A stretch of 64,000 nucleotides of DNA from Eledone cirrhosa (lineage: Eukaryota): the NCBI GenBank assembly GCA_964016885.1, contig CAXHJY010000834.1, forward strand, positions 1-64,000. The letters are read 5' to 3'. The translations under genes were made by a program, and so were the position numbers. This document shows, piece after piece, positions 1,123 through 50,724 of the stretch (the first letter of the stretch is position 1; the number at the start of each line of letters is the position of its first letter). The notes below the pieces were generated by a model. It was not told where the DNA came from and ran no database searches. It saw only the letters and a program-made list of their open reading frames with translations.

Positions 1123-1302
1123 ATAATATAAGATCAAAAGATGGTTAAAGGAGTTCCATGTATTTTATTATGCGCATTGATGGAACTCCTTTAACCATCT
1201 TTTGATCTTATATTATGTATACTCCAGTCCTACAAACTGTAGAGTGCTTCTTATCCGATATCTGCATTGCTTTATTGTACTACAATAAAACTCACCTTCT
1301 AC
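1123..1302 (+). mobile_element. Fold-back cassette family A, copy 1 (Penelope-like terminal-repeat fragment)
   Basis: Arms 1123-1159 and 1180-1216 are reverse complements, and the right arm runs on to 1302. Same family as 38388-38780. The loop carries the 3' half of the family-A hammerhead on minus (aatgcgcataataaaata). Confidence 0.75.
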
Positions 1303-4300
1303 ATATACATATATACATATACATATATATATATACATATACATATATATACATATATATAAATATATATACATATATATATACATATATATATATATAT
1401 ATACATATATATATATATACATATATATATATATATACATATATATATATATACATGTATATATATGTATACATATATATATATATATACATATATATAT
1501 ATATACATGTATATATATATATACATATATATATATATATATATACATATATATATACATATATATATATACATATATATATATACATATATATATATAT
1601 ACATATATATATATATATACATATATATATATATACATATATATATATATATACATATATATATATATACATATATATATATATATACATATATATATAT
1701 ATACATATATATATATATATACATATATATATATATACATATATATATATATATACATATATGTATATACATATATATATATATATACATACATATATAC
1801 ATACATATATATATATATACATATATATACATACATATATATACATACATATATATACATACATATATATACATACATATATATATATATACATACATAT
1901 ATATACATATATATATATATATACATATATACATATACATACATACATATATATATATACATACATATATATATATATATATATACATACCTATATATAT
2001 ACATATATATACATACATATATATATATATATATACATACCTATATATATACATATATATACATACATATATATATATATATATACATACATATATATAT
2101 ATATATATACATATATATATATATATATACATACATATATATATATACATACATATATATATATATATATATATACATACATATATATATATATATATAC
2201 ATACATATATATACATATATATACATATATACATACATATATATATATATATATACATATATATACATACATATATATATATATACATATGTATATATAC
2301 ATATATATATATATATATACATATATATATAATATATATACATATATATATATATATATACATATATATATATACATATATATATATATATATATATATA
2401 TATATATACATATATATATATATATATACATATATATATATATATATACATATATATATATATATATATATATATACATATATATATATATACATATATA
2501 TATATACATATATATATACATATATACATATATACATATATATATATACATATATATATATATACATATATATATACATATATATATATATATATATACA
2601 TATATATATATACATATATACATATATATACATATATATATATATATACATATATATATATACATATATATATATACATATATATATATATACATATATA
2701 TAATACATATATATATATATATACATATATATATATACATATATATATATATATACATATATATATATACATATATATATATATATACATATATATATAT
2801 ATATACATATATATATATATATATACATATATATATATATATACATATATATATATATATACATATATATATATATATACATATATATATATATACATAT
2901 ATATATATACATATATATATATATATACATATATATATATATACATATATATATATATACATATATATATATATACATATATATATATATACATATATAT
3001 ATATATATACATATATATATATATATACATATATATATATATATACATATATATATACATATATATATATATATACATATATATATATACATATATATAT
3101 ATATACATATATATATATATATACATATATATATATATACATATATATATATACATATATATATATATACATATATATATATATACATATATATATATAT
3201 ACATATATATATATATACATATATATATATATATATACATATATATATATATACATATATATATATATATACATATATATATATATACATATATATATAT
3301 ATACATATATATATATATACATATATATATATACATATATATATATATACATATATATATATACATATATATATATATATACATATATATATACATATAT
3401 ATATATATATACATATATACATAATATATATATACATATATACATACATATATATACATACATATATATATATATACATACATATATATACATATATATA
3501 TATATATACATATATACATATACATACATACATATATATATATACATATATATACATACATATATATATATATATACATACCTATATATATACATATATA
3601 TACATACATATATATATATATATATATACATATATATATATATATATATATACATATATATATATATATACATATATATATATATATATATACATACATA
3701 TATATATATACATACATATATATATATATATACATACATATATATATATATATATATATACATACATATATATATATACATACATATATATATATATATA
3801 CATACATATATATATATATATATACATACATATATATACATATACATACATATATATATATATATATACATATATATACATACATATATATATATATACA
3901 TATGTATATATACATACATATATATATATATATACATATGTATATATACATATATATATATATATATACATATATATATATACATATATATATTATATAT
4001 ATATACATATATATATATATATACATATATATATATACATATATATATATACATATATATATATATATATATATATACATATATATATATATACATATAT
4101 ATATATACATATATATATATATATACATATATATATATATACATATATATACATATACATATATATATATATACATATATATATATATACATATATACAT
4201 ATATATATATATATACATATATATATATATACATATATATACATATACATATATATATATATACATATATATATATATACATATATATATATACATATAT

Positions 4301-6126
4301 ATATATATATACATATATATACATACATATATATATACATATATATACATACATATATATATACATATATATACATACATATATATATATATATATATAC
4401 ATACCTATATATATACATACATATATATATATATATATACATACATATATATATACATATATATACATACATATATATATATATATATATACATACATAT
4501 ATATATATATATATACATACATATATATATATATATATATACATACATATATATATATATACATACTTATATATACATATATATACATATATACATACAT
4601 ATATATATATATATATACATATATATATATACATATATATACATATATATATATATATACATATATACATATATATACTACATATATATATATATATATA
4701 TACATATATATACATACCTATATATATACATATATATACATACATATATATATATATATATACATACATATATATATATATATATACATACATATATATA
4801 TATATATATACATACATATATATACATATATACATACATATATATATATATATATACATATATATATACATACATATATATATATATATACATATGTATA
4901 TATATATATACATATATATATACATATATATATATACATATATATATATATATATATATACATATATATATATATATACATATATATATATACATATATA
5001 TATATATATACATATATATATATATATACATATATATATATATATACATATACATATATATATATATACATATATATATATATATATACATATATATATA
5101 TACATATATATATATATACATACATATATACATACATATATATATATACATATATATACATACATATATATACATATATATACATATATATATATACATA
5201 TATATATATATATACATACATATATATATATACATATATATACATACATATATATACATACATATATATATATACATATATATACATACATATATATACA
5301 TACATATATACATACATATATATACATACATATATACATACATATATATATATACATATATATACATATATATACATATATATATATATACATACATATA
5401 TACATACATATATATACATATATATACATATATATATATACATATATATACATACATATATATATATATATATACATACCTATATATAGTACATATATAT
5501 ACATATATATACATATATATATATACATATATATACATACATATATATATATATATATACATACCTATATATATACATATATATACATACATATATATAT
5601 ATACATACATATATATATATATATACATACATATATATATATATATACATACATATATATATATATATATATACATATATATACATACATATATATATAT
5701 ATATACATATGTATATATATATATACATATATATACATACATATATATATATATATACATATGTATATATATATATACATATATATATATACATATATAT
5801 ATATATATATATATACATATATATATATATATACATATATATATATACATATATATATATACATATATATATACATATATATATATACATATATATATAT
5901 ATATACATATATATATATACATATATATATATATACATATATATATACATATATATATATATACATATATATATATATATGTATGTATATATATATATAT
6001 ATATGTATGTATATATATGTATATACATATATATATATATATATATATGTATATATATATATATATACATACATATATATACATATATATACATATATAC
6101 ATACATATATATATATATATATATAT

Positions 6127-48603: not shown

Positions 48604-50604
48604 AGAAAAATGACTGCAATACATTAAAAACTTCAGTCTTTAGTTTAATGAAAATTTTCACAACAATCTGTCCACTAGTTAAGATACAATAAACATTTGA
48701 ATTAACAAACCTGTTTTTAGATATTTCCTGCTAAATCATTACAGGATGTTAAGAGTTAAGTTAACTTCAGTATGTTTCTGAAAACTGAAGTCATGGAAAT
48801 ACTCAGTTGATAATGACTGGTATCATAGTGACCAAATAGTAGCAGATATGGAGCCATTTAAAAATGTGGGACCTAAAAAGAAGAATAAAAAAGATTCAAT
48901 TAGAGATTTCACACAACAATAGCAAATTCAATATGAATAGAACCTCTTTCTTCCATCTCCAGAAAAATAGCTTTTGATTATTATATACAGTTTATCTGCA
49001 CTGTAGTGGATTTTCAAAAAGCAAACACATTTTCAAATTTCCTCAATGCTTCACAAATGAACCAATGTAAAAAAAAATGACACACAACGAAAAGCATGCA
49101 GTCCACACTGTAAATGTGGTTGGTATTAGGAACGGCATCCAGCTGTAGAAACCAAGCCAGAAACAGTTCTGTATGAGCAAGACACGGTCACTCACCTGAC
49201 CCGACTTGCCTCAAAAGGGACACCCCATCTAACCCATGCTAGTATGGAAAATGGACGTTAAACAATGATGATGATAATGATAACGATATATATATATATA
49301 TATGTGTGTGTGTGACAATATGATATGATATATATATATATATATATATAAATATATATATTAAATTCAAAGGGTATATATATATAAATTAGACAAAGTC
49401 ATAGATATATATGTGTTTGGCAACCATTCACGGTGTAGCTCAAATACTGTATATATTTTATCTAATGATTCTTTGGACTTACATTTTTATATATATATAT
49501 ATATAAATTGAAAGATGAACAAATAAAACACAGGAGACCATTTTTACAGTTATATTAGGTTCACACTTGCTGGAAGTGGAGGAATTAGGGAAGGAAATAA
49601 AAAAATAAAATAAAAGGGGGGTGGTATGGGTCCAGACTGGAGGGTGGGGTGGATGGTAGGGTGGCATGGGTGTGGTAGTGTATGTGGGGGTCGAAGGGGA
49701 GAAATGAATAGAATGCAGGGCTTCAAATTGTTCTGTGTTATATATAGAGGGTGAAAAAATATGTGCAAAATACTGTTTCTCAAACATGGATTGGCAGTAT
49801 CGGTAGAGGGTTGGACGCCATGCTTTCCAGCATAGTTACGTCCCTTTACGATCTGAGTTCAAATCCCGCCGAGGTTGACTTTGCCTTTCATCCTTACGGG
49901 GTCGATAAAATAAAGTACCAGTAATGAACTGGGTAATTGCTGGCCTTGTGCCTAAAGTAGAAACAAATATATGTCTCTTTCTTTCTCTCTACATATATCT
50001 TTTAATTTGAATTATATAAATATATATATACTTATATAGTAATAATAAATACAAAGACCAAAATCTAGATTATTTTTCCATACTAGTGTGGAAAAATGAA
50101 TATTAAATGGTGATGATGAAGATGATATATATATATATAATAATAATAAATAAAAAAACCCAAACCCGAAGAGGGCTTGATAAGGATTATTTATATATAA
50201 GTATATCTAAACCCATAGAGCAAATATTTATTATCGTCACAACAAAAAAAGCTCTCAGCCTACACTGTAATGTGGTTGTGTAGGTGTCACGGCAAAAGCA
50301 TCCAGCCTACACTGTAAAGTGGTCATGTAGGAGTCACGACAAAAAGCACCCAGCACACACTGTAAATGTGGTTGGCATTAGAAAGGGCATCCAGCTGTAG
50401 AAGCCAAGCCAGAAACAGTTCTGTATGAGCTTAATTTGCATATCAAGTGATTTTATTGCCAGTTTTATCGAAAATTACAAAATTTGTTTTCACACTAACT
50501 CAAGAATACATTTAGGTATTCACCATGCTAGAACGAAGAGAGAGAGAGAGTGAGTGAGAGAGAGAGAGAGAGAGAGAGAGAGAGAGAGAGAGAGAGAGAG
50601 AGAG

Positions 50605-50724
50605 AGATTGGGAGTTACCAGTTTAGACTAATAAGACCATGTTCAACTATGAACTCAATACTTGGGAAAGTAATAACCATTACAATACATGGTCTTCCTA
50701 GTCTAAACTGGTAACTCCCAATCT
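50605..50724. repeat. Short fold-back cassette I (~38-bp arms) between (GA)n and TA
   Basis: 50605-50642 vs 50687-50724. Confidence 0.7.

Follow-up and report, generated by a model that had tools for sequence, protein, structure and literature searches.

A 64,000-nucleotide (nt) stretch of the Eledone cirrhosa genome (assembly GCA_964016885.1, contig CAXHJY010000834.1, positions 1 to 64,000 of the forward strand; hereafter, the window) contains ten inverted-repeat cassettes, at positions 1123 (c1), 9765 (c2), 26229 (c3), 27634 (c4), 28433 (c5), 32991 (c6), 33722 (c7), 34216 (c8), 38388 (c9) and 50605 (c10). These cassettes are very probably 5ʹ-truncated insertions of Penelope-like elements (PLEs) that target TA repeats, (TA)n, and they likely arose by twin priming. 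They belong to dispersed families whose copies have fixed outer ends and variable joints, and whose two arms come from the same source while reaching independently far in the 5ʹ direction. Judged by the genes and motifs of their longer relatives, five of the nine families represent 3ʹ ends of PLEs of at least 3.5–3.7 kilobases (kb), four of them of the Hydra clade and one other. The cassette architecture and its attribution to PLEs are mostly known; what is new is a set of insertion rules and, in c3, a non-autonomous family bearing a transfer RNA (tRNA).

All ten cassettes are head-to-head inverted repeats that become prominent once simple repeats are masked (BLAST E 1e-11 to 1e-180), as had been proposed in an earlier reading of the window's letters, here called the original prediction. 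Their arms measure 33–212 nt and are 88–100% identical, with alignment scores of 61–363, well above the maxima of 22–45 obtained with 200 shuffles per cassette. Loops foreseen at 1–90 nt, with one of about 380, measured 1–87 nt in nine cassettes and 383 nt in one. The long loops consist of family sequence: that of c4 is the 5ʹ extension of the arm without a tail, and that of c6 the 5ʹ extension of the arm with the tail. Asymmetry, with a one-sided tail, and a setting in (TA)n or an imperfect TA run were found in nine of the ten, so the predicted one-sided extension in microsatellite stands except for c10, whose arms both end at the outer site of its family and whose left flank is (GA)n. The cassettes had also been called mostly unrelated, which holds for the nine families and not for c1 and c9, which share one.

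The genome searched comprises 3.0 gigabases, and every cassette belongs to a dispersed family of 131–4584 first-look candidates. Exact matches to the family tails numbered 7120 for c5, 6097 for c2, 1672 for c9, 509 for c7 and 204 for c3, with 0 for reversed controls; unlike exact matching, a DNA search with the tail only returned nothing. Long copies carrying reverse transcriptase (RT) and GIY-YIG endonuclease genes are present in five of the nine families, accounting for six cassettes, and the proposed link to TA-targeting PLEs is thereby borne out. Open reading frames (ORFs) combining RT with a C-terminal GIY-YIG-type domain are joined to the repeat at loci L248 (715 amino acids), L258, L421, L415, L426, L266, L277 and L505. 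The motifs DKT and RW[KR], a CxCX5C linker and the endonuclease motifs CxxC and CxH were read in the translations P0001, P0002, L258 and L277. Not all Hydra-type motifs were read in every family, c5 being placed by tblastn (42% identity, E 1e-91); Pfam returned no match for P0001 or P0002, and it is by motifs that families c1/c9, c2, c5 and c7 are assigned to the Hydra clade. The Hydra-type ORF begins 47 nt behind the tail in c2 read-through copies, and long c5 copies bear pieces of such an ORF. The c4 family matches RVT_1 at L261 (E 4.4e-9) and GIY-YIG at L262 (E 5.1e-5) and is not Hydra-type. In the four Hydra-type families, TA stands to the right of the tail in 26/30, 27/30, 30/30 and 30/30 copies, and tandems occur at 3.55–3.74 kb. 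Moreover, multi-kb copies with ORFs share the two outer ends of the short stubs, which makes the cassettes the short end of one size range. At L247, for example, the tail arm extends 2.8 kb and the inverted arm, which ends 80 nt from the 3ʹ end, about 1.9 kb.

Other features of these families were seen in passing. The c2 family has an apparent TG/TA-rich 3ʹ region of several kb, with inverted pairs 6–8 kb across (L416–L418, L477). At L422 (G000:C2:45810265-45811209), the c7 Hydra element has a tandem derivative of 456 nt, possibly a young retrozyme with a known parent. The genome holds 10,597 GIY-YIG candidates, and the 30 best loci are mostly cysteine-linker PLEs with a C-terminal endonuclease, unrelated to the cassettes.

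Public reads and contigs of the species bridged none of the window's own cassette joints, leaving these loci without read confirmation, as would be expected if the cassettes were chimeras of the assembly or library. Chimeras are nevertheless unlikely because the ends are asymmetric and fixed by family and the arms have diverged. Divergence between the arms reaches 12%, the arms stop at sites fixed for each family on many chromosomes, and raw reads of another sample contain a shorter c3 fold-back joint (27 reads with 7 starts); the c3 and c7 families were both found in other samples of the species. Since five families are also tied to RT and GIY-YIG genes, an origin as chimeras or as terminal repeats of DNA transposons is scarcely credible.

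The insertion rules emerge from copies drawn from the tail-match lists according to chromosome position: of 270 loci, five that were second ends or near-duplicates were removed, leaving 265, and a few listed places were skipped as already included or adjacent. Of the 265 copies, 145 have an inverted arm that stops at the inner site of the family and 10 have one that stops at the outer site; joints more than about 420 nt from the tail are invisible, so these counts are undercounts. The inner-site arm was present in 31/50 copies of c2, 40/50 of c5, 19/50 of c7, 26/48 of c9 and 29/67 of c3, and TA lies at the outer end of 135 of the 145. Within these 145 copies, 75 have a tail-less arm that extends more than 5 nt further 5ʹ than its tailed partner; in 25 it falls short of the tail arm, and in 18 the two arms share no overlap. 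The position of the joint differs from copy to copy.

The variable joints bear on the idea, put forward in the original prediction, that the hairpins form a retrozyme-like class of their own. Under this reading, they would be a self-propagating retrozyme- or MITE-like (miniature inverted-repeat transposable element) class copied as a unit, and the same centre indeed recurs in most of the 40 best c2 matches. This fixed centre was rejected as query bias, however, for copies sampled by position have differing joints and include long forms. In addition, the same outer ends occur on multi-kb ORF copies, and the arms of older c5 hairpins differ by 6.3% within an insertion compared with 7.1% between insertions (n = 21), as expected for neutral DNA. 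Because turn points vary, long forms share the outer ends and old arms drift neutrally, the hairpins are best regarded as dead by-products. A self-propagating class is refuted for c1/c9, c2, c4, c5 and c7 and very improbable overall.

A second alternative, proposed in PMC3846280, is self-priming or snap-back, in which one complementary DNA (cDNA), or an antisense template, turns back at a palindrome and is extended along its own sequence. It would fit the many joints that lie on palindromes or overlaps of 2–6 nt. It would also fit the c2 family, where in 23 of 23 hairpins the two arms agree in their subfamily allele (chance ~2e-8), a result that assigns both arms to one source. However, self-priming of the tail arm cannot yield a second arm that reaches further 5ʹ (75/145) or does not overlap (18/145), and self-copying of the short arm cannot make a tail. 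The 75 longer tail-less arms exclude snap-back of the tail-arm cDNA, which the original prediction had offered as one of two routes, and the independent 5ʹ reach favors the other, priming from both DNA ends. Self-priming is therefore largely refuted as a general route and improbable as the source of the cassettes, and may still produce some copies with 0-nt loops.

Both fixed sites appear to have a structural signature. In each of the five families that have read-through copies, a stem-loop of 4 base pairs (bp) starts about 5–14 nt behind the outer site; four of the five have one behind the inner site as well (in c9 by eye; absent in c3). The stem pairs ACTC/GAGT, GCTC/GAGC, GCAC/GTGC and GCTA/TAGC vary in compensating fashion, against a background of 5.7% of positions. 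The end of a coral Hydra consensus in the supplement of PMC8557442 includes one case, judged by eye, of the same stem-loop motif. Separately, only the tail of a further family is present at window positions 26101–26200; this fragment shows the same ACTC/GAGT stem-loop and has a relative in L625.

At the opposite end of the copies, 5ʹ ends pile up at family-specific distances from the tail end: 125–137 nt in c2 (42/74), 130–142 in c5 (53/89), 262–277 in c7 (15/46) and 248–258 in c9 (19/70). Each of these peaks coincides with an initiator-like site and has a TATA-like box 26–31 nt ahead of it, and the c2 copy L277, which continues into the ORF, begins close to the c2 pile-up. The pile-ups may thus reflect run-off at a predicted transcription start, which would explain the small size of the stubs; a c5 start inside stem II would likewise explain its "split" hammerhead. 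The enzyme might instead stall at RNA structure or prefer certain joint sites. The c3 family has a pile-up compatible with such stalling, with 46 of 103 5ʹ ends at 150–162, inside the T-arm of the tRNA and at a palindrome of 4 nt, as though the enzyme had been blocked by the folded tRNA; the c9 peak also falls on a 6-nt palindrome. Against stalling, the c2 peak coincides with the far (5ʹ) edge of the hammerhead, and the c5 peak falls inside the stem II loop, positions at which a structural block is unexpected; in c2 and c5 alike, the upper edge is sharp and a TATA-like box lies at -30/-31. Stalling or joint-site preference is accordingly rather unlikely as the general cause. A few c5 ends lie near the predicted hammerhead cut (95–103).

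Taken together, these features suggest how insertion by twin priming would proceed. Nicks made by the PLE enzyme in the two strands of a TA repeat would leave DNA ends, each of which would prime a copy of RNA from the same source, beginning at one of two fixed sites 40–90 nt apart. A promoter within the terminal repeat is the likely origin of that RNA, and the enzyme is probably guided to each start site by the stem-loop immediately 3ʹ of it. Each cDNA would extend toward the 5ʹ end of the RNA, stopping there or earlier, and the cDNA ends would then join via 0–6 shared or a few added bases. Where both cDNAs cover the same stretch, the product would be a hairpin with a one-sided tail; otherwise, an inversion without a hairpin would result. 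Insertions would mostly be gene-less stubs because the start sites lie only 60–270 nt behind the likely transcription start. The c3 unit, as a non-autonomous element, was likely moved in the same way from multimeric or circular RNA.

Several points weigh against this account. The start sites are TA-rich, whereas a PLE in vitro starts without target homology. In 11 of the 145 inner-site joints, 30–40 nt are unaligned and the 5ʹ reach is uncertain, and arms with the same allele fit either one RNA or two RNAs of one source locus. The pile-up windows were set after inspection of the data, and the c9 TATA match is weak. Besides the five families with RT and GIY-YIG genes, c6 shows only a possible link, in the form of Hydra-type endonuclease remnants that lie upstream at 3 of 24 loci, and for c8 and c10 no linked RT-endonuclease ORF was found within about 1.6 kb.

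The claim that most cassettes contain a full, split or mutated hammerhead ribozyme holds in part: three are complete, one is a variant, three are partial and three are absent. Hammerheads were scored with a purpose-made descriptor, relaxed after its first version missed c2 and c7; 10 of 1000 shuffles pass in strict and 36 of 1000 in relaxed form. By this descriptor, complete type I hammerheads are present in c2, c7 and c9, and c6 has a one-base variant core common to 16 of 24 family copies. By eye, c1 and c5 hold only the 3ʹ half and c4 a non-canonical look-alike. None was found in c3, c8 or c10, and the CTGATAG of c3 was rejected as a hammerhead core because of its location on the wrong strand. 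No hammerhead appears among the Rfam matches listed (150 of 370 rows, and 30 rows of a second scan), which are dominated by TA-repeat and hairpin microRNA models. The hammerhead stems vary in sequence between families with complementarity kept. Among the best matches to queries that hold the motif, it occurs in 30/30 c2, 26/30 c9 and 29/30 c7 copies. The c5 family has a hammerhead in long copies only, with a U3-A8 core (L110); the descriptor found a canonical one in 0/24 copies of the c4 family. In the c8 family, it occurs in 1–2 of 24 copies, c8 itself being truncated 3ʹ of it, and in the c10 family, whose tail resembles that of c5, only a 3ʹ half was seen, by eye. Non-standard cores thus recur, as U3-A8 in long c5 copies and as A at position 4 in c6 (the 16 of 24 copies above).

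Cassette c3 proved to be a tRNA-bearing non-autonomous unit without a hammerhead, which the original prediction had overlooked. Its cloverleaf scores 47.1 bits against Rfam RF00005 (gathering threshold 29), and ARAGORN agrees on the array unit. The unit has a period of 272 nt and forms an array of about ten units at G000:C4:61009627-61012411. Wherever a c3 copy extends far enough, the unit's own tail precedes the tRNA, at no fewer than 11 loci and additionally at 5 of 20 loci of a sister subfamily, which has the same layout and 913 candidates. The copies occur in permuted, tandem or inverted form, their two ends being fixed, and arms are sometimes longer than one unit. Folded as a circle, the unit is predicted to form the cloverleaf and a second domain, which is closed where the two flanks of the tRNA pair in a helix. 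The descriptor found a hammerhead on the sense strand in 0/30 family copies, and Rfam found only the tRNA in three units. RNase Z cutting was rejected as the origin of the c3 5ʹ ends, few of which lie at the tRNA 3ʹ end and most 5–15 nt inside.

Short interspersed nuclear elements (SINEs) derived from tRNA also have a tRNA head and are moved by the enzyme of a partner; they are linear, dependent on LINEs (long interspersed nuclear elements) and not permuted. The c3 unit has the tRNA head and differs in its permuted units, lacking the linear order of head, body and tail with a LINE-derived 3ʹ end. With retrozymes that have no long terminal repeats (non-LTR retrozymes), it shares a tandem or permuted non-coding unit of 150–300 nt and not the type I hammerhead. 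It is described here as a non-autonomous, gene-less unit with a PLE footprint, likely borrowing the PLE route without a ribozyme. Two observations count against this description. The tRNA is followed by a T5 run at which polymerase III would terminate, and this speaks against plain transcription of the entire unit by that polymerase; a search for a helper gave no match in 30 of 150 GIY-YIG loci. Nor was a non-c3 context found among the fetched loci checked; a Naiad-derived pattern gave no match, and cephalopod Naiad ends are unlike c3 by eye.

Among known systems, twin priming of LINE-1 yields 5ʹ inversions by priming on the second strand; the second primer anneals at variable sites, and no arm is duplicated. 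The proposed route of the cassettes resembles it in second-strand-primed inversions and differs from it in the duplicated arm and the fixed sites. Among the closest published matches is the Hydra clade of PLEs, for which inverted 5ʹ-truncated copies with a one-sided tail of 30–40 bp, (TA)n targets and hammerheads have been described (PMC8557442), and the supplement of that paper includes one octopus Hydra family preferring (TA)n. The cassette families share with this clade the C-terminal endonuclease, the DKT, RW[KR], CxCX5C and CxxC/CxH motifs, the hammerhead, the (TA)n target and the inverted tailed copy. Their tails are longer (61–87 nt vs. 30–40) and their units larger (at least 3.5–3.7 kb vs. 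less than 3 kb). Joint counts, stem-loops at both start sites and the run-off model are given here and do not appear in the accessible text of PMC8557442.

Biochemical work on the Poseidon PLE of Anolis, as far as the accessible text of PMC11167929 describes it, showed in vitro that both strands are cut and extended, with two RT start sites bounding the tail. AT-rich targets, two internal starts bounding the tail and extension on both strands all recall the cassettes, and the Poseidon template is uncleaved RNA. However, Poseidon begins in an AC-rich stem-loop that lacks homology to the target; the cassette families have TA-rich sites. Also, no coupling of strand to site was seen for it, whereas 145 of 155 family-fixed inverted arms here use the inner site opposite the outer-site arm. 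In Adineta vaga, Penelope elements have head-to-head repeats, with a TATA box and initiator in the pseudo-long terminal repeat (PMC3846280). The inverted repeat, optional tail, joint palindromes, TATA box and initiator all resemble the cassettes; the self-priming proposed in the available part of that paper acts on an antisense template, whereas the copy statistics here favor two primings on sense RNA. Animal non-LTR retrozymes (PMC7761336; bioRxiv 10.64898/2026.07.22.740005) and the MRC1-like non-autonomous Chlamys elements (PMC8557442) are, from the portions of these sources that were accessible, like c3 in being permuted non-coding units with tandem arrays and a PLE footprint. Unlike them, c3 has a tRNA cloverleaf in place of the hammerhead, and the other cassettes are stubs of coding elements, not tandem units. 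No report of PLE twin priming or of a tRNA-derived non-autonomous PLE was found in the openly searchable literature, Repbase and subscription papers lying outside the search.

More tentatively, the two parts can be joined in one picture that may or may not hold. PLE insertion would be dimer-driven double priming, with two related stem-loops setting the starts and promoter run-off leading to tens of thousands of small hairpins. The c3 unit would be a tRNA-bearing minicircle moved by PLEs, its cloverleaf replacing the hammerhead as a promoter or processing signal and rolling copying yielding the tandem arrays. PLEs are the retroelements closest to telomerase, and the origin of their inverted structures, together with the route of inverted and tandem insertion, is named as an open question in the accessible text of PMC8557442. 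Thousands of young copies provide testable rules: one arm per site, a stem-loop behind each and promoter run-off. The copy statistics contradict the published self-priming idea as a general route. If correct, the c3 reading would extend PLE-dependent parasites from hammerhead retrozymes to tRNA-derived ones. The hairpins look like neutral relics and are of less interest as functional RNAs.

Table 1. Cassettes and their parts in the window (c, cassette; strand as assigned).
Feature	Position	Strand	Description
c1	1118..1301	+	Hydra-type, family of c9; only 3ʹ part of hammerhead
c1 arms	tail-less 1118-1159 and into loop; tail arm ~1180-1301		80-nt tail
c2	9765..9928	-	tail arm 9894-9765; short arm 9896-9928
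c2 hammerhead	core at 9892	-	complete type I, in tail arm; predicted cut after 9854
c3	26226..26623	+	arms 26226-26400 and 26404-26578; tail to ~26619-26623
c3 identity			fold-back copy of closed 272-nt unit without ORF or hammerhead
c3 tRNA-like cloverleaf	26403..26474	+	anticodon read as GGA; mirror copy in left arm
c4	27634..28188	+	arms 27634-27845 and 27933-28150; tail ~38 nt; 87-nt loop
c5	28434..28623	+	arms 28434-28490 and 28496-28552; tail to 28623; hammerhead 3ʹ half
c6 (old)	32890..33687	-	arms 32991-33147 and 33531-33687; tail to ~32890; 383-nt loop
c6 variant hammerhead core	33057	-	
c7	33722..34187	+	Hydra clade (by motifs), 3.7-kb unit; arms 33722-33910 and 33914-34099; 87-nt tail
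c7 hammerhead cores	33822 and 33999	- and +	
c8 (old)	34216..34540	+	arms 34216-34321 and 34340-34451; tail ~78-88 nt
c9	38388..38770	-	Hydra clade (by motifs), 3.67-kb unit; tail arm 38609-38388, 80-nt tail
c9 short arm	38639-38770		intact hammerhead core at 38676 (+)
c10 (old)	50605..50724	.	both arms end at family outer site; left flank (GA)n

Cassettes c6, c7 and c8 lie end to end in the window (32890–34540), separated only by short TA runs, and chains of different PLE stubs are common among the fetched loci. Very long imperfect (TA)n arrays of up to 9.8 kb hold cassettes at window positions 1–9764, 31654–32354 and 35781–38387. A 133-nt island between TA runs (10026–10158), related to sequence beside L227, is probably another PLE stub. 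Elsewhere in the window, a 17-bp minisatellite of about 80 copies occupies 24334–25773, and a 1.45-kb inverted pair (12234–13689 and 19505–20943; 87% identity, 5.8 kb apart) with non-TA flanks is possibly a foldback DNA element.

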